From an uncultured Gemmatimonadaceae bacterium (GTDB lineage Bacteria; Gemmatimonadota; Gemmatimonadetes; Gemmatimonadales; Gemmatimonadaceae): a DNA stretch of 64,000 nt. Under the pieces are notes generated by a model. That model did not search any database, had not been told where the DNA came from, and saw nothing but the letters and a program-made list of their open reading frames with translations. Of this stretch, positions 42,540 through 48,787 are shown piece after piece (position 1 is the first letter of the stretch; each line of letters starts with the position of its first letter). The position numbers were made by a program, and so were the translations under genes. The DNA is taken from assembly GCA_963761305.1 (NCBI GenBank), contig CAVXGK010000002.1:3232001-3296000 (forward strand), in the 5' to 3' direction.

Positions 42540-42667
42540 GGGTGGACAGGTGGACAGGTGGACAGGTGGACGGCGAGATGTCCGACGTCTGGATGCCAGA
42601 AGACTGACTCAGCGGTCCGGCCCTCCCTGTCCACCTGTCCACCTGTCCACCCGTCCACCCGTCCACC
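42540..42667. repeat. Two-armed GGTGGAC(A/G) palindromic element, best-preserved copy
   Basis: (GGTGGACA)x3 GGTGGACG GCGAGATGTCCGACGTC... then (CCTGTCCA)x3 CCCGTCCA CCCGTCCACC. Confidence 0.9.
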
Positions 42668-42758
42668 TTTAGAAACGGCCAGACGTGCCGATATGCAATG
42701 AAAGGGGGCCGCGATTGCGGTCTCCGAGAAGCGCGACGCCGCACCACGGGAGGGCGTC

Positions 42759-43829
42759 CTGCCGCATATCGGACGAAGCATCACGGCGACCGTTGTCATC
42801 GCCTCGACGGCCTGTGCGTTCTCGCGCGGCTCCACGGGATTCCATCCCGCGGACGACTTCGTTCTGTCCGGCACCGCGCTGTCCGATCTCACCGAGGGCA
42901 CGACGCTGCGGACGAGATCGGCCGCGCTCGACCGAATCACCAAGCGTGAGCCGCGGCTCGACAGCACGATGCGTCGACTCGGCACGGGCCGCGGCGTGGC
43001 GATCTACGTCTTCGACGGCGGTGTCAGCGATACGCACGCGGAGCTGGCGGGGCGCGTTCGAGTCGGATTCGACGCGTTCCCGAGCTCCCCTCGAGTCTGC
43101 AACGCGCACGGCACCGCCGTCGCCGGCGCCGCGGCCGGTGCGACGCTCGGCGTGGCCCCCGAAGCCGAGATCGTCGACGTCAAGATCATCAACTGCGATC
43201 ACATGCGCGGATCCGTGAGTGCCATCGCCGACGCGGCGCGGTGGACGGTGCAGGATCACCATCGCCATCCCGGGCAGGCCGCGATCGCGAACTGGTCGTT
43301 CGCCGTCGACACGACGCGCGGCGTTCCGGAGGTGGACAGCGCGCTCGCGATGCTGCGCGACGCGGGAATTCTCGTCGTCGTCGCGGCGGGCAACTTCGAC
43401 ATCGACGCCTGTCACGTCTCGCCGGCGAACGCGCCGCGCGCGTTCGTCGTTGGTGCGAGCGCGCTGATGCATTCGACCGACAAGCAATGGCAGGACGTGC
43501 GGGCCAAGAATACTGCGTGGGGTCCGTGCATCGATCTCTACGCGCCAGGGGACTCGGTGCTGTTGCCGGGTTTCGATCGCGAGGGGCCGACAACGTCCGT
43601 GTGGAGCGGCACGTCGATGGCGGCGGGCTACGTGAGCGGCGCGGCGAGCCTCATCTTCCAGCGCGATCCCGGCGCCACATCCGATGACGTCATGATGTTG
43701 CTGCTCGAGCAGGCCACGCCGTCGGTCGTCGACGAGCGCGCGGGTATCACGACGTCGGCGCGCTCACCGCTGCTCTACGTCGGCCCCGCGGTGCGCACCG
43801 TAGCCGCCGTTCCGCACGTACGGTACTAG
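42759..43829 (+). CDS. S8 subtilase (proteinase K/aqualysin-like), probable lipoprotein with CTG start
   Basis: Triad VFDGG / HGTAVAG / GTSMAA, AAGN; frame is open upstream of ATG 42969 and includes ALDRITKREPRLD and a signal-like ITATVVIASTAC; start position inferred. Confidence 0.85.
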   Translation: MPHIGRSITATVVIASTACAFSRGSTGFHPADDFVLSGTALSDLTEGTTLRTRSAALDRITKREPRLDSTMRRLGTGRGVAIYVFDGGVSDTHAELAGRVRVGFDAFPSSPRVCNAHGTAVAGAAAGATLGVAPEAEIVDVKIINCDHMRGSVSAIADAARWTVQDHHRHPGQAAIANWSFAVDTTRGVPEVDSALAMLRDAGILVVVAAGNFDIDACHVSPANAPRAFVVGASALMHSTDKQWQDVRAKNTAWGPCIDLYAPGDSVLLPGFDREGPTTSVWSGTSMAAGYVSGAASLIFQRDPGATSDDVMMLLLEQATPSVVDERAGITTSARSPLLYVGPAVRTVAAVPHVRY

Positions 43830-44303
43830 TCCGCCGGCCGACAGCACGCCGGCCATGAAGGGTGCGGGCGGCGCCGCGGCGATCGTCTCGTTCCTGTCGA
43901 GCAGGGTGATGATCGCGGTCCGATCGTCCATCGACACACGGAGCCTGTCTCCTTCGCGAATTGCGCTCGTGTCGCACTCGATCGGCAGCAGCGCGTTGTT
44001 GACGGCGTTGCGGTAGAACGTTCGCGAAAAGCTCTTGGCGAGGACCGCCTTGATGCCCGCGGCGAGAATCACCGTGGCGGCGATCTCCATGGCCGATCCG
44101 CAGCCGAAGTTCGCGCCGGCGACGATCAGGTCTTCCGGTTGCACCGACGCCGCGAACGCCGGATCGACCGCCTCGAGGAGATATCGCCTCAACACGCTCT
44201 CATCCAGCGTGTCGCGCTTGCGCGTGGAGGCGATGATGTAGTCGGTGTTGATATCATCGCCGAGCACGCGCGCGCGGCCGTCGAGTGCGATGTGCATCGT
44301 CAT
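43764..44303 (-). CDS. leuD: LeuD/HacB-type hydro-lyase small subunit
   Basis: GDDINTDYII, AGANFGCGS, AKSFSRTFYRNAVN; ATGA overlap with the large subunit; substrate probably not isopropylmalate. Confidence 0.88.
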   Translation of the reverse strand: MTMHIALDGRARVLGDDINTDYIIASTRKRDTLDESVLRRYLLEAVDPAFAASVQPEDLIVAGANFGCGSAMEIAATVILAAGIKAVLAKSFSRTFYRNAVNNALLPIECDTSAIREGDRLRVSMDDRTAIITLLDRNETIAAAPPAPFMAGVLSAGGLVPYVRNGGYGAHRGADVEQR

Positions 44304-45643
44304 CGGATGTCGCGCGGGTCGGTGATGCGGCCCGTGGCGGCCGACGCGGCGCACGTCGCCGGCGACGCGAGGTAGATCGACGCCGTGGCGTTGCCCATGC
44401 GCGCCTTGAAATTGCGGTTCGCCGTGGAGAGCACGTTCATGCCGTCGCCCGGAATCGCGCCGCTCGTTCCGCAGCACGCGCCGCAGCCAGGCGTCGTGAC
44501 GATCGCGCCCATCGTCGTGAGCTTGGCGAGCGTGCCGTCGTCGGTGAGCGTGAGCAGCACCTCGCGCGACGCCGGCGTCACGACCAACTGCACGCCTGGC
44601 GCCACGCGTCCGCCGGCACGCTCGAGCACGTGCACAGCTTCGTGAAAATCGGAGACCCGGCCGCCGGTGCAGGTGCCGAGGAAGACCATGTGCACCGGGA
44701 CGCCGGCCGCCGCGCTGACGTCGACCACGTCAGTCGGATTGTGCGGAATCGCGACGCGCGGCGAGAGTGTCGAGAGGTCGAGGGTGAGGGTGAGTGAATA
44801 GGTCGCGGTGGAGTCGGGGTGGACGGGCGTGGACGGGTGGACAGCGAGACGTCTGACGTCAGACCCCTCGGCTTCCGAGGCGTCGCCTCTCGTTGTCCAC
44901 CCGTCCAGCCCGTCCACCCTCTCGGCGAGGTACGCCTCCGTCGCCGCATCGACGCTCCACATCGCCGCCTTCGCGCCCGCTTCGACCGAGAGATTCGACA
45001 ACACCATGCGCTCGTCGAGCGTGAACGCGCCGACGCCCGGACCGTGGAATTCGAGCGCCTGATAGTTCGCGCCTTCAGAGCCGAGTGCGTGGATCATCGC
45101 GAGACCCACGTCCTTCGCGGCGAGCGCGGGCGGACGCGTTCCGGTGAGCTCGATCCTGATCGTCTCCGGCACGCGCAACCACGTCCGGCCGGTGATGAGC
45201 GCAGCCGCGATGTCGGACGAGCCGAGTCCGGTCGCGAACGCATTGAGCGCGCCGCAGGTCACGGTGTGACTGTCGGCGCCGATGACGAGATCGCCGGGCA
45301 CGATGCGCCCGCGTTCTGGTGCGACCTGGTGGCTGATTCCTTCGCCGACCTCGAACACCGTCGCGCCATGGCGTCGCGCGAATGCGCGTACCTGGTCGTG
45401 AAACGCAGCGGTCTTGGGCGTGGACGGCGGCGAGTAGTGGTCGAGCGAGAACACCACGCGATTCGCGTCGAACAACCGCTCGCCGCCCATCTGCTCGAAG
45501 TAGCCGATGGTCATCGGCGTGGAGGCGTCGGTGCCTATGACGAGGTCCACGTCGCATACGACGACGTCGCCCGCGCGTGCATCGACGCCCGACTTTGCCG
45601 ACAGAATCTTCTCGCTCAGTGTCTTGCCGCGAGCCGCCGTCAT
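44300..45643 (-). CDS. leuC: LeuC/HacA-type aconitase-family hydro-lyase large subunit
   Basis: KTLSEKIL, GISHQ, GADSHT, LSNLSVEAGAK, FLGTCTGGR, PGCGACCG ([4Fe-4S] cysteines), TANRNFKARMG. Confidence 0.9.
   Translation of the reverse strand: MTAARGKTLSEKILSAKSGVDARAGDVVVCDVDLVIGTDASTPMTIGYFEQMGGERLFDANRVVFSLDHYSPPSTPKTAAFHDQVRAFARRHGATVFEVGEGISHQVAPERGRIVPGDLVIGADSHTVTCGALNAFATGLGSSDIAAALITGRTWLRVPETIRIELTGTRPPALAAKDVGLAMIHALGSEGANYQALEFHGPGVGAFTLDERMVLSNLSVEAGAKAAMWSVDAATEAYLAERVDGLDGWTTRGDASEAEGSDVRRLAVHPSTPVHPDSTATYSLTLTLDLSTLSPRVAIPHNPTDVVDVSAAAGVPVHMVFLGTCTGGRVSDFHEAVHVLERAGGRVAPGVQLVVTPASREVLLTLTDDGTLAKLTTMGAIVTTPGCGACCGTSGAIPGDGMNVLSTANRNFKARMGNATASIYLASPATCAASAATGRITDPRDIR
44817..44919. 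repeat. GGTGGAC palindromic element inside the leuC-like CDS
   Basis: GGGTGGACGGGCGTGGACGGGTGGACAGCGAGA ... TCTCGTTGTCCACCCGTCCAGCCCGTCCACCC near-perfect inverted repeat. Confidence 0.85.
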
Positions 45644-46947
45644 TCGCTCGACGCCGCGGCGGCTGTCGGATCGATTGTCACCGGGCTGGCGAGCATCGTG
45701 TCGGCGGCGGCGCCGCGCTCCGTGCGCGCGATCCACGTTGCTCCAACGAGGTTGCTCAACGTGTTCACCGCCGACCGGCACATGTCGAGCGGGCGGTCGA
45801 TCGCGGCCACGAGCGCCATGCCCGCGGCGGCGCGCGAGCCGAGGCCGATCGCGTTCAGCACGATCAGCGTCGTGACGAGCGAACTGCCCGGCACGCCCGC
45901 GCCGGCAAACGCGGCGATCGTCGCCATGGCGACGACCGTGAGCATCATGCTCGGCGTGACGGGAAAACCGTACAGATGCGCGATGAAGACGGCCGTCACC
46001 GCTTTATAGGCAGCCGACCCGTTCTTGTTGAGCGAAGCGCCCGCCGGCAGGACGAAGCTCGTGATGTCGCTGGGTACGCCTAGGCGGTCGTTGGCCGCGG
46101 CCATGCTCACGGGAAGCGTCGCGTTGGACGACGCCGTAGAGAACGCGAGGAAGAGCGCGTCGGACGTGCGCTCGAGGAAACCGGCAATCGGTTGGCCGGC
46201 ACCGAAGCGCAGCATCGGGATCAGCGTGACGACGACGTGCACGACCAGCGCCACGACGACGACGGCCGCGAACGCGAGAAGCTGGTCGAGCAGCCCGAGA
46301 CCCGCCTTCGCGACCGCGGCCGCGATGAGGGCGAAGACGCCGAATGGCGCGAGCTGCATGAGCCAACCGACGACGACCATCGCCATCTCGTTCACGCCCC
46401 GGAAGAAACGCACGACCGGTTCGCGCCGGTGGGTTTCGATGACCGTCGCGGCGGCGCCGAAGAAGCACACCGCGACGATGAGCGGCAAGAGATCGGCGCC
46501 GCCCTGCGCTGCGGCCGCGAACGGATTCTGCGGCACGAGGTTGATGAGCGTCTGCGCGACGCCTGGCACGGACGCGGTACCTGCGCCGCCCGGCTGATTC
46601 GCCGCGCCAACGGCATTCGGAAAGGTGAAACCGGCGCCGACGTTCGATGTCGTCGCGACGAGCAGGCCGATGAGCGCGGCGACGAGCGTCGTTCCGAAAA
46701 AGAAAAGTAGTGTCTTGGCGCCCACTCTGCCGAGCGATCGGATGTCGCCCAGCGATGCGACGCCGACGAACACGCTGGCGATGACGAGCGGCACGACGAC
46801 CATCGTGATCAGTCGAATGAACACGGTGCCGACCGGCTCGAGGTTCGCGACCACGCCTGCGAACAACCCAAAACCGGGCGCGCGCGCGACCAGCCCGACG
46901 ACCACGCCGGACGCGAATCCTATGAGGATCTTGCGCTCGAGCTTCAC
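45640..46947 (-). CDS. Dicarboxylate/amino acid:cation symporter (DAACS, GltP/GltT-like)
   Basis: FIRLITMVVVPLV, AFSTASSNATLP, FVLPAGASLNKNG, AGVPG, IDRPLDMCRSAVN. Confidence 0.92.
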   Translation of the reverse strand: MKLERKILIGFASGVVVGLVARAPGFGLFAGVVANLEPVGTVFIRLITMVVVPLVIASVFVGVASLGDIRSLGRVGAKTLLFFFGTTLVAALIGLLVATTSNVGAGFTFPNAVGAANQPGGAGTASVPGVAQTLINLVPQNPFAAAAQGGADLLPLIVAVCFFGAAATVIETHRREPVVRFFRGVNEMAMVVVGWLMQLAPFGVFALIAAAVAKAGLGLLDQLLAFAAVVVVALVVHVVVTLIPMLRFGAGQPIAGFLERTSDALFLAFSTASSNATLPVSMAAANDRLGVPSDITSFVLPAGASLNKNGSAAYKAVTAVFIAHLYGFPVTPSMMLTVVAMATIAAFAGAGVPGSSLVTTLIVLNAIGLGSRAAAGMALVAAIDRPLDMCRSAVNTLSNLVGATWIARTERGAAADTMLASPVTIDPTAAAASSE

Positions 46948-48104
46948 GACGCGCCCGCTCTCGCCGCGTTGGCGTCGTGCGGCGAATAGTGGCCGGAGAG
47001 CACCTCGTCGAGCGCGAGCTTCAAGGCGTCGAGCGTGCGCTCGGCGTCAGCCATGCGAATGTCGCCCATGTGGCCGATGCGAAAGCCGACCGACTCGTAC
47101 GGCCCGAGGCCGCCCGCCGTGAGAATGCCGCGCGACTTGATTCGTTCTCGGATCGCGCGCGGCTCGACTCCTGCCGGCAGCGCGATCGCCGTCATCGTTG
47201 CCGAGAGATGCGGGAGCTGGGGACATTGCAGCGTCAGTCCGAGCGCGCCGACGCCTTCGCGGACTCGTCGAGCGAGCGACGCGTGGCGCGCGTAGACGTT
47301 GTCCAGGGCTTCCTCGTGGATCATGCGCAATGCTTCGGCGACTTGCAGCACGATCGCCACGGGCGGCGTGCCGGGCGTCTCCGGGCGCGCTTTCTCGACC
47401 GCGTGCTTCACGGCGGTGAAATCCCAGTAGTTTCTCGGCAGCGTCGACGTCGCGCAGGCGGACCACGCACGCTGGCTCAGCACCGCCCACGAAAGCCCCG
47501 GCGCCGACATTAAACACTTCTGCGTCGCCGTGACCGCGACGTCGGCGCCCCACTCGTCGAACGCGAACGGCATTCCGCCGAGGGACGACACGCCGTCCAC
47601 CAGCACGAGCTTGTCGCGCGAGCGGGCAATGCGGGCGACCGCCTCGACGTCGTTCCTCACACCGGTTGACGAATCACCGAACGCGAGCGCGATCGCGCGC
47701 GTTCGTGGATGCTCGTCGAGCACGGACTCGAGCTCGCGCGCATCGACGCCCAGCTCCCATTGTGTCGCCAAGCGATGCGCGACGACGCCGTACGATTCGG
47801 CCAAGCGCGCCCACATCTCGCCGAACTTGCCGTTACAGCACACGGCGATCTCGTCGCCGGGCGAGAAGAGGTTGCAGATCGTCGCTTCCAACGCACCGCG
47901 GCCCGTCGTGTGGATCGGGATCGGTGTCTGCGTCGTGCCAAATACGGGACGCAGAAGCTCCAGCGCGACGGCCAGCTCGCGAGAGAACTCCGGCGTGCGA
48001 TGGTGGATCATGGGCCGCGCGCCCGCGCGCAGCACGCGCTCGGGCACGCGCGTCGGACCCGGCGTCATGAGAAGCAACGGCTCTCCGGCAAACGGCTCCG
48101 TCAC
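46944..48104 (-). CDS. Class V aminotransferase (alanine/serine-glyoxylate type)
   Basis: LLMTPGPT, HHRTPEF, NGKFG, VDGVSSLG, TATQKCL (PLP lysine), FRIGHMG. Confidence 0.92.
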   Translation of the reverse strand: MTEPFAGEPLLLMTPGPTRVPERVLRAGARPMIHHRTPEFSRELAVALELLRPVFGTTQTPIPIHTTGRGALEATICNLFSPGDEIAVCCNGKFGEMWARLAESYGVVAHRLATQWELGVDARELESVLDEHPRTRAIALAFGDSSTGVRNDVEAVARIARSRDKLVLVDGVSSLGGMPFAFDEWGADVAVTATQKCLMSAPGLSWAVLSQRAWSACATSTLPRNYWDFTAVKHAVEKARPETPGTPPVAIVLQVAEALRMIHEEALDNVYARHASLARRVREGVGALGLTLQCPQLPHLSATMTAIALPAGVEPRAIRERIKSRGILTAGGLGPYESVGFRIGHMGDIRMADAERTLDALKLALDEVLSGHYSPHDANAARAGAS

Positions 48105-48787
48105 TCGATCACGCCCTTCTTCCTGAGCGACTCGTCGATCTCCGCGCGATACAACACACCCTTTCCGATCTCGGCGATTCGCGCCGTCTCGCGGGCCATC
48201 AACTCGCCGACGGCCGCGAGCACGGATTCAGCATCGTCGCGCGGGACGACGGCCACGCCGTCCTTGTCACCCACGACGAGATCGCCCGGCATGACGACCG
48301 TATCACCGCAGGCGATCGGCAGATTGATCTCGCCGGGTCCGTCCTTGTCGCACGCGCCGGGACTCACCGAACGGCTGAACGCGGGCATGCCGAGCCGGCG
48401 GATGCCGTCGACGTCGCGAATCGCGCCGTCCACGATGATGCCGCCGAGCTTCTTTGCCGACGCTGTGTGACACATCAATTCGCCGAACACGGCGCTCGTC
48501 GTGTTGCCGCAGGTGGCGACGACGATCACGTCGCCCGGGTCGGCAACCTGAAGCGCCTTGTGCACCATGAGATTGTCGCCGGGCCGACAGCGCACGGTCA
48601 CCGCGCGACCACCGAGCGACAACCCGGTGCGCGAGAGAATTCCTGGATCCATGAAATTGAACCGCCCCATCGCGTCGGCGAGGTTCGCGGCGGCCGTGCC
48701 GCGAAAACGTTCGACGAGCGAATCGGGGAGTCGCGGTGGAGCGGTCGCGATTCGAAAGCCTGGTTTTCCGCTGGCTGAGACGGGCAT
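48101..48787 (-). CDS. RraA-family protein (HMG/CHA aldolase-like)
   Basis: ANLADAM, GRAVTV, GDNLMVHKAL, GELM, VDGAIRDV, PGDLVVGDKDGV. Confidence 0.9.
   Translation of the reverse strand: MPVSASGKPGFRIATAPPRLPDSLVERFRGTAAANLADAMGRFNFMDPGILSRTGLSLGGRAVTVRCRPGDNLMVHKALQVADPGDVIVVATCGNTTSAVFGELMCHTASAKKLGGIIVDGAIRDVDGIRRLGMPAFSRSVSPGACDKDGPGEINLPIACGDTVVMPGDLVVGDKDGVAVVPRDDAESVLAAVGELMARETARIAEIGKGVLYRAEIDESLRKKGVIE

Follow-up and report, generated by a model that had tools for sequence, protein, structure and literature searches.

In the 4-hydroxy-4-methyl-2-oxoglutarate/4-carboxy-4-hydroxy-2-oxoadipate (HMG/CHA) aldolase, Arg123 is catalytic and Asp124 and Glu199 are metal ligands (PMC5065237). 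Aconitase uses Ser642 as general base and binds its [4Fe-4S] cluster through cysteines (PMC8184944); the GSSRE motif is highly conserved in the family, and a loop of the protein sets substrate preference (PMC7308503). In the dicarboxylate/amino acid:cation symporters (DAACS), acidic amino acids are selected by residues D394, R397 and N401 (PMC12668577). Proteins of these three kinds, together with a class V aminotransferase, are encoded by a five-gene operon in the window analysed here, a 64,000-nucleotide stretch of the genome of an uncultured Gemmatimonadaceae bacterium (assembly GCA_963761305.1, contig CAVXGK010000002.1, positions 3,232,001 to 3,296,000). Judged by sequence, each protein is from a known family, and the hydro-lyase belongs to a clade of its own in which a nearly universal motif is altered. 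We propose, with a probability of roughly 60%, that the operon is a catabolic module which would convert a 4-branched, glutamate-like acidic amino acid into pyruvate and a central keto acid. The five-gene combination was not found described in the open-access literature.

The operon, on the minus strand in the order RraA, aminotransferase, DAACS, LeuC and LeuD, consists of five intact open reading frames (ORFs). The initial annotation had reported overlaps of 4 nt between neighbours and a number of motifs; the overlaps were seen at all four junctions and the motifs were found in the translated proteins. The Pfam matches of all five proteins exceeded their cut-offs, and the function-specific equivalog cut-offs of NCBIfam were passed by none. 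Scanning of genome contigs yielded 79 loci, of which 69 belong to the same hydro-lyase subfamily and ten carry remoter HacA-like pairs with none of the three partners. Counts in context were made on the 50 subfamily loci with full flanks, 19 with short flanks being excluded, and the alignments and counts over L001-L068 as well as the tallies over 30 carriers take in one unpublished genome row (G029, locus L037). All five genes were present in 36 of the 50 loci, and 47 had two or more of the three partners; the DAACS gene was absent from two and a nearby RraA gene from two. The transporter gene was placed before or after leuCD, depending on the locus. Because the arrangement recurs at about 42-90% protein identity and in several gene orders, it is far beyond chance.

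An even sample of the phylum, 301 genomes, contained seven carriers including the source genome, with scores of 262-282 bits and a next score of 150. The other six all had the five genes in the order of the window, one of them seemingly being the contig of L001. The recurrence of the five-gene set, proposed as a check in the initial annotation, was therefore observed. As the genes are linked in the carriers and the carriers are few, the module is tightly linked but rare. By name, carriers belonged to Gemmatimonadota, Acidobacteriota, one Myxococcota, Cupriavidus and Ramlibacter, and the nearest relatives were uncultured Gemmatimonadaceae. Phylum samples centred on one acidobacterial and one myxococcal carrier yielded no carrier but the centre genome (1/301 and 1/151), and no relative was found on viral contigs. 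No sixth conserved enzyme was found among the clustered ORFs of the 69 loci; the 61 scanned neighbours were heterogeneous, and the next commonest neighbour cluster, kinase-like by our reading, occurred at 13 of the 69. Since no sixth enzyme recurs, both cleavage products are probably central metabolites.

The strongest new evidence for the pathway scheme came from exchanges of partners: the hydro-lyase and an RraA aldolase remained joined where the aminotransferase (two class V groups, or class I) and the transporter (DAACS, TctC, ABC, GltS) were exchanged. On the chromid of Cupriavidus campinensis MJ1 (locus L160) the order was a divergent LysR gene, TctC, LeuC (50% identity), LeuD, a class I aminotransferase and an RraA protein (44% identity) of the PRK06201 type. 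The aminotransferase is aspartate-aminotransferase-like (613 bits, cut-off 617) and had no significant similarity to that of the window. The leuD record of MJ1 (L160 11936-12534) was frameshifted near its start, and an intact orthologue of 197 aa was found in other Cupriavidus. In a metagenome set of 36 loci of at least 4 kb, drawn from the 80 top-ranking of 576 confirmed matches, RraA was found at 23, the class V enzyme at 21 and a DAACS match at 18. A second class V group (36-39% identity) occurred in seven of these loci and a more distant RraA (42-48%) in eight. In some loci an ATP-binding cassette (ABC) system or GltS stood in for the transporter: GltS was found in L147, an added ABC importer resembling putative aminoethylphosphonate transporters was found in L128 and L131 together with a threonine-aldolase-like gene, and the beginning of the same importer was found in L154. 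As the functions stayed constant though the genes were swapped, the set looks like a pathway, and uptake is implied by the TctC and ABC binding proteins among the partners.

The two hydro-lyase subunits were compared with the profiles of their families. The large subunit passed the subfamily profiles PRK00402 (476.6 bits, cut-off 385), TIGR02086 (447.2, cut-off 410.15) and TIGR01343 (446.5, cut-off 385.7), and the small subunit passed TIGR02087 alone (132.9, cut-off 108.95). The LeuCD equivalogs TIGR00170/00171 and TIGR02083/02084 were failed (168.8/560, 46.7/116, 370/611 and 110/246, bits/cut-off), as were the methanogen HacAB equivalogs including HacA_Meth (361/550 and 126/230) and the LEU2 profile. 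The cluster cysteines that the initial annotation had described as kept, C325, C387 and C390, were present in 63 of 63 large-subunit homologues, and so were D124-S125-H126, E221, R410 and R415. New to the subfamily were C391 and T393 (63/63), G327 (62) and T38 (61); H105 was variable. In the tree of the large subunit, 33 subfamily rows were split from nine outgroup rows with a support of 100/100; the 42 rows included no biochemically characterised enzyme, and the clade is defined by its support values. Only Aconitase_C clusters were returned by a search of the ESM Atlas.

The small subunit was aligned to 2PKP and 3VBA. Residues S26, R28, K29, S70, A71, M72 and E73 were found in 64 of 64 homologues and residue 30 was basic (R/K) in all of them, so that the substrate-recognition loop reads S26-x-R28-K29-(R/K)30. 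A71 and M72 stand where Ser and Arg would stand in GSSRE, which gives GSAME. Among 150 library representatives and the query, GSAME was counted 49 times and GSSRE 83 times; GSAME accompanied the basic loop wherever the loop was covered, and the loop occurred with GSSRE in one protein. In GSSRE, the Arg, with the Ser before it, presumably binds the activating carboxylate and stabilises the alkoxide of the base Ser. S70, the equivalent of Ser642 of aconitase, would still serve as base, and the loss of the following Ser and Arg fits the exchange of a proton beside a ketone and not beside a carboxylate. With the Ser-Arg pair lost and the proton beside a ketone, the enzyme would be an Fe-S analogue of LigJ/GalB, the hydratase of the lower protocatechuate/gallate 4,5-cleavage pathway.

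In the alignment of the RraA-like protein to 3NOJ, the equivalents of R40, N71, H75, G101, R123, D124, K147 and E199 were kept, D102 was replaced by Glu and R195 by Leu. In the numbering of the operon protein, R42, N72, H76, G102, R124, D125, K148 and E200 were invariant in 50 homologues and E103 was found in 90% or more of them, with variation around N95. Asp102, whose position is occupied by E103, is presumably a further metal ligand of HMG/CHA aldolase. The protein has the metal-binding residues and the catalytic Arg expected of an HMG/CHA aldolase (LigK/GalC) and is predicted to be a class II pyruvate aldolase. The PRK06201 cut-off was missed by the window protein (218 bits, cut-off 231) and was passed by the partners in L160 and L131.

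The equivalents of D394, R397 and N401 in the transporter (D388, R391 and N395) were found in 51 of 51 homologues. According to the initial annotation NKNG stands in place of NMDG, and this is so in the window protein; its Lys (K308, the M311 position) is not fixed, however, with K in 43, M in 4 and L in 4 of the 51. The invariant novelty was K315 at the position of Q318, seven residues past the NKNG Lys (51/51). Asn occupied the D312 position in 49 of 51, and the T314 position held Ala (34) or Ser (17), so neither the NMD motif nor T314 was kept as a rule; the Na1 Asp D405 was Asn in 41 of 51. The protein is predicted to import an acidic amino acid, its transmembrane helix 7 being remodelled. 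The aminotransferase scored 87.6 bits against the class V profile (cut-off 21.5) and has the pyridoxal 5'-phosphate (PLP) lysine of the class; its top NCBIfam match was BhcA (252 bits, cut-off 650). The PLP lysine K196, R342 and H34-H35-R36 were invariant in 42 homologues, and the N-terminal His-Arg pair was also retained in the second class V group. By comparison with phosphoserine aminotransferase, such a His-Arg pair would bind a distal acid group.

The proposed pathway would begin with the import of an acidic 4-branched amino acid by the DAACS protein, or by the TctC, ABC or GltS systems that replace it, and with its transamination to the 2-oxo acid. The [4Fe-4S] LeuCD-type enzyme would then add water at C4 of the 2-oxo-3-enoate. 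The C4 hydroxyl and the C5 carboxylate would chelate the unique iron, and the proton that is exchanged would lie beside the ketone. Finally, the RraA-type aldolase would split the 4-hydroxy-2-oxo acid by retro-aldol cleavage into pyruvate and either oxaloacetate, pyruvate or glyoxylate. What was observed is gene content, recurrence, the catalytic residues kept, the novel motifs and the exchange of partners; we infer the direction, the order of reactions, the substrate and all four steps. The general scheme of import, transamination, hydro-lyase reaction and retro-aldol cleavage, first put forward in the initial annotation, is supported by conservation, by the catalytic residues kept, by the lack of a leucine pathway and by the independent partner swaps. 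The substrates named there, 4-methyleneglutamate and 4-hydroxy-4-methylglutamate, are possible but gained no support, and the latter would require no hydro-lyase.

The extra basic residues R28, K29 and R/K30 of the small subunit and K315 and K308 of the transporter speak, if only slightly, for a third anionic group in the substrate, a carboxylate, and for the CHA type over the HMG type. If the catabolic scheme is right, a tricarboxylic substrate of the CHA type (pyruvate and oxaloacetate as products) is a tentative first choice, a little short of an even chance. A methylene or methyl substrate of the HMG type, giving two pyruvate, is possible with a lower probability, and an unbranched one of the 2-keto-4-hydroxyglutarate (KHG) type, giving pyruvate and glyoxylate, is unlikely. 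Malate synthase was not found in the source genome (93% complete), a slight point against a glyoxylate product unless the aminotransferase removes glyoxylate. Doubtful when all its parts are taken together is the most specific version, in which a tricarboxylic 4-branched glutamate, the amino form of the CHA/2-keto-4-carboxy-3-hexenedioate (KCH) skeleton, would be degraded by way of the first aconitase-family 2-oxo-enoate hydratase, an enzyme without the GSSRE Arg, the transporter lysines serving the third carboxylate.

Several observations weigh against the catabolic reading. The aldolase missed the LigK/CHA-aldolase cut-offs (PRK09262, 152 bits, cut-off 179; TIGR02798, 134, cut-off 304.5) and has Leu for R195, and the K147 equivalent is found in plain RraA (3C8O) too and thus specifies no substrate. 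The aminotransferase gene was missing from seven of the 50 full-context loci, which kept the other four genes, and leuCD stood alone in three. A PrpF/LigU-type isomerase, which may be needed for a substrate of the methylene or oxalomesaconate type, was found in only one of 36 carriers. K315 of the transporter may stand in for the coupling cation. A literature search for a passage on the role of the GSSRE Arg found none. We know of no abundant soil source of the tricarboxylic candidate.

The closest solved relatives of the hydro-lyase are the isomerase and homoaconitase subunits of M. jannaschii, and in all 64 small subunits a basic residue aligns with the loop Arg of homoaconitase. The enzyme might therefore be a homoaconitase-like isomerase which moves the hydroxyl of a tricarboxylic or 3-hydroxy substrate (of the oxo- or amino-homoisocitrate type, or 3-hydroxyglutamate) to the 4-position for the aldolase. 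The threonine-aldolase-like gene at the end of L128 and L131 would moreover be in keeping with beta-hydroxy amino acids, but the two loci are probably related to one another. Such a reaction needs removal of a proton beside a carboxylate, the step served by the highly conserved GSSRE (PMC7308503) and changed here in 64 of 64, and this makes the isomerase improbable, though it fares best among the alternatives.

The Ser-Arg-Lys loop would also fit a tetrahedral anion, and the substrate might carry a phosphonate, phosphate or sulfonate group bound by that loop, as in an amino acid like 2-amino-5-phosphonopent-3-enoic acid (APPA) or homocysteate. The ABC system of L128, L131 and L154 is nearest to putative aminoethylphosphonate transporters (L131 was scanned; below the cut-off), and PhnX-like and PhnW-like genes occur elsewhere in the source genome. 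Phosphonatase-like matches were found, however, in only nine of 35 other carriers, three of them above the cut-off; the source genome had no PhnA above the cut-off and no PhnJ, and no gene for aldehyde disposal recurred at the loci. A phosphonate substrate is weakened by these counts, and an explanation of this kind is decidedly unlikely.

All steps of the scheme are reversible, and the module could run biosynthetically: an aldol condensation followed by dehydration and transamination would yield an unsaturated amino acid. For APPA in rhizocticin a similar reaction sequence is used. RhiG is counted with the enzymes of phosphonate biosynthesis, and RhiI/RhiJ are listed for precursor processing (PMC13579937). 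The partners, however, are importers, with TctC and ABC binding proteins among them, and divergent LysR or IclR genes frequently lie next to them; no ligase, non-ribosomal peptide synthetase or exporter recurred at the loci, so that biosynthesis is highly improbable.

No better placed is a role in salvage or repair of the condensation products of pyruvate (parapyruvate, its dehydrated enone and amino forms) in place of dedicated nutrient use. HMG aldolase does split HMG (parapyruvate) into two pyruvate (PMC5065237), and the aminotransferase is dispensable in seven of the 50 loci. The patchy distribution, 7 of 301 genomes in the phylum, does not favour salvage, and a nutrient fits the dedicated importers and local regulators better; salvage is very unlikely.

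Databases call the hydro-lyase proteins 3-isopropylmalate dehydratase, and the window pair is the sole LeuCD-type pair of the source genome. The initial annotation had named, as something that would refute its reading, a pair that complements leuCD and is the only copy in the genome; the single copy was found, but it does not save a leucine role, as leuA, leuB and ilvD were likewise not found. In the source genome (93% complete) the LeuA/homocitrate-synthase family (PF00682) had no match, LeuB no match above the cut-off and IlvD none, in agreement with the leuA/leuB absence noted earlier for the operon; all 14 controls of these searches matched. Two PF00180 matches in the genome were isocitrate-dehydrogenase-like by our reading. 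No LeuA-family match was found in 12 of 30 carriers. A second full-length LeuC-type gene together with a strong LeuA match (556-598 bits, slightly below the cut-off) was found in nine of the 30, and in eight of these nine the separate LeuC-type and LeuA genes lay no more than about 5 kb apart; score and position suggest that the second leuC set is the canonical one. Moreover, Arg-Lys stands in place of the hydrophobic loop residues. Leucine or lysine biosynthesis can be practically dismissed. The source organism is likely a branched-chain amino acid auxotroph.

The genes of the operon and an element within leuC are given in Table 1. The GC content of the operon was 68%, against 66% for the genome. 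The operon DNA had no match in Rfam, no sigma-70 site was found in the promoter check, and terminators did not exceed chance level. The upstream regions of the loci had no common DNA motif, the top 8-mer occurring in 8 of 49. The element in leuC is built of 8-nt units and adds about 20 or more residues where homologues have a gap. A larger copy lies at 42540-42668, some 151 places in the genome, after merging, have related sequence, and shorter remnants occur in the same LeuC loop of the close relatives L001-L004; the element appears incidental to the operon.

Table 1. Genes of the operon and the repeat element within it (positions in the window)
Feature	Position	Strand	Details
RraA-fold, HMG/CHA-aldolase-like protein	48101..48787	-	228 aa; PF03737 6e-43; nearest NCBIfam PRK06201
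Class V PLP aminotransferase (AGT/SGAT/BhcA-like)	46944..48104	-	386 aa; PF00266
DAACS/SDF transporter	45640..46947	-	435 aa; PF00375 8e-104
LeuC-like [4Fe-4S] hydro-lyase large subunit, HacA/DmdA/archaeal-IPMI (isopropylmalate isomerase) type	44300..45643	-	447 aa; PF00330
LeuD/HacB-type small subunit	43764..44303	-	179 aa; PF00694
Palindromic repeat element, in frame within leuC	44829..44910		inverted arms 44830-44849 and 44888-44907

Other genes were observed around the loci and in the source genome. A subtilase gene (PF00082, 42969-43829, plus strand) is convergent with leuD, the two sharing 66 nt at the 3' end of leuD. Next to the Cupriavidus operon (L160 4702-8426, minus strand) are genes for hydantoinase/oxoprolinase A and B and a further gene each for TctC and LysR; these might serve to open a lactam form of the substrate, or might have nothing to do with it. 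Histidine-utilisation-like genes, identified by reading of the translations, lie directly upstream of leuCD at L143 2434-3684 and L157 1018-5336. Two acidobacterial loci with leuCD alone have nearby a two-component system whose sensor is of the four-helix-bundle kind (L011 5277-7284 and L027 4489-6479). A trio of transporter-like, PhnX-like and PhnW-like genes at 2748954-2752206 of contig C2 of the source genome (G000) suggests use of aminoethylphosphonate elsewhere in the genome.

The database label makes leucine enzymes of these proteins, an error which inflates calls of leucine synthesis in Gemmatimonadota that are likely auxotrophic. If the catabolic reading is true, it would extend the aconitase family by a type of reaction new to it, give a physiological role to orphan PRK06201-like RraA proteins and point to a hitherto unrecognised acidic amino acid used by soil bacteria; the tricarboxylic version would mean that soil organic matter contains an amino acid so far overlooked. 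The subfamily is present in cultured Cupriavidus species.

Compared with known systems, the operon is similar to the lower protocatechuate/gallate 4,5-cleavage pathway, in which an RraA-fold aldolase cleaves a 4-hydroxy-2-oxo acid (P. putida F1 aldolase, PDB 3NOJ; PMC5065237), in its catalytic Arg, its metal ligands and its predicted hydrate-then-cleave logic. It differs in that the hydratase would be an Fe-S aconitase-family pair, that entry would be by an aminotransferase and an amino acid importer, that ring-cleavage genes are absent nearby and PrpF/LigU is rare among the carriers, and that the aldolase scores below the LigK cut-offs. A search for LigA gave no match in this genome, and its controls gave no match either. 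With the isopropylmalate/citramalate isomerase and homoaconitase of M. jannaschii (PDB 4NQY/4KP1, 4KP2, 3VBA and 2PKP) and with DmdAB-type hydratases, likened here by NCBIfam family name, the hydro-lyase has in common the two-subunit architecture, the three cluster cysteines, the Asp-His pairs, a pair of arginines in the active site and the base Ser. Unlike all of these, the operon pair has GSAME, the S-x-R-K-(R/K) loop, T38, G327 and the extra C391; it lies in a clade separate from eight or more HacA-like outgroup rows and has no synthase or decarboxylating dehydrogenase as partner. The aminotransferase shares its fold, PLP lysine and C-terminal Arg with class V enzymes of the alanine-glyoxylate (AGT), serine-glyoxylate (SGAT) and BhcA types (PDB 2DR1, 6PK1 and 3ZRP), but it is far below the BhcA equivalog cut-off and can give way to a different class V group or to an enzyme of class I. 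The transporter has the equivalents of D394, R397 and N401 in common with the aspartate/glutamate transporters GltPh, GltTk and GltP (PMC12668577; PDB 9BGZ), and Asn for D405 in most members is one signature of the proton-coupled members of that family. It differs from them in having mostly N-K-N for NMD, Ser or Ala for T314, an invariant Lys for Q318 and Ser-Ser at the tip of hairpin 2.

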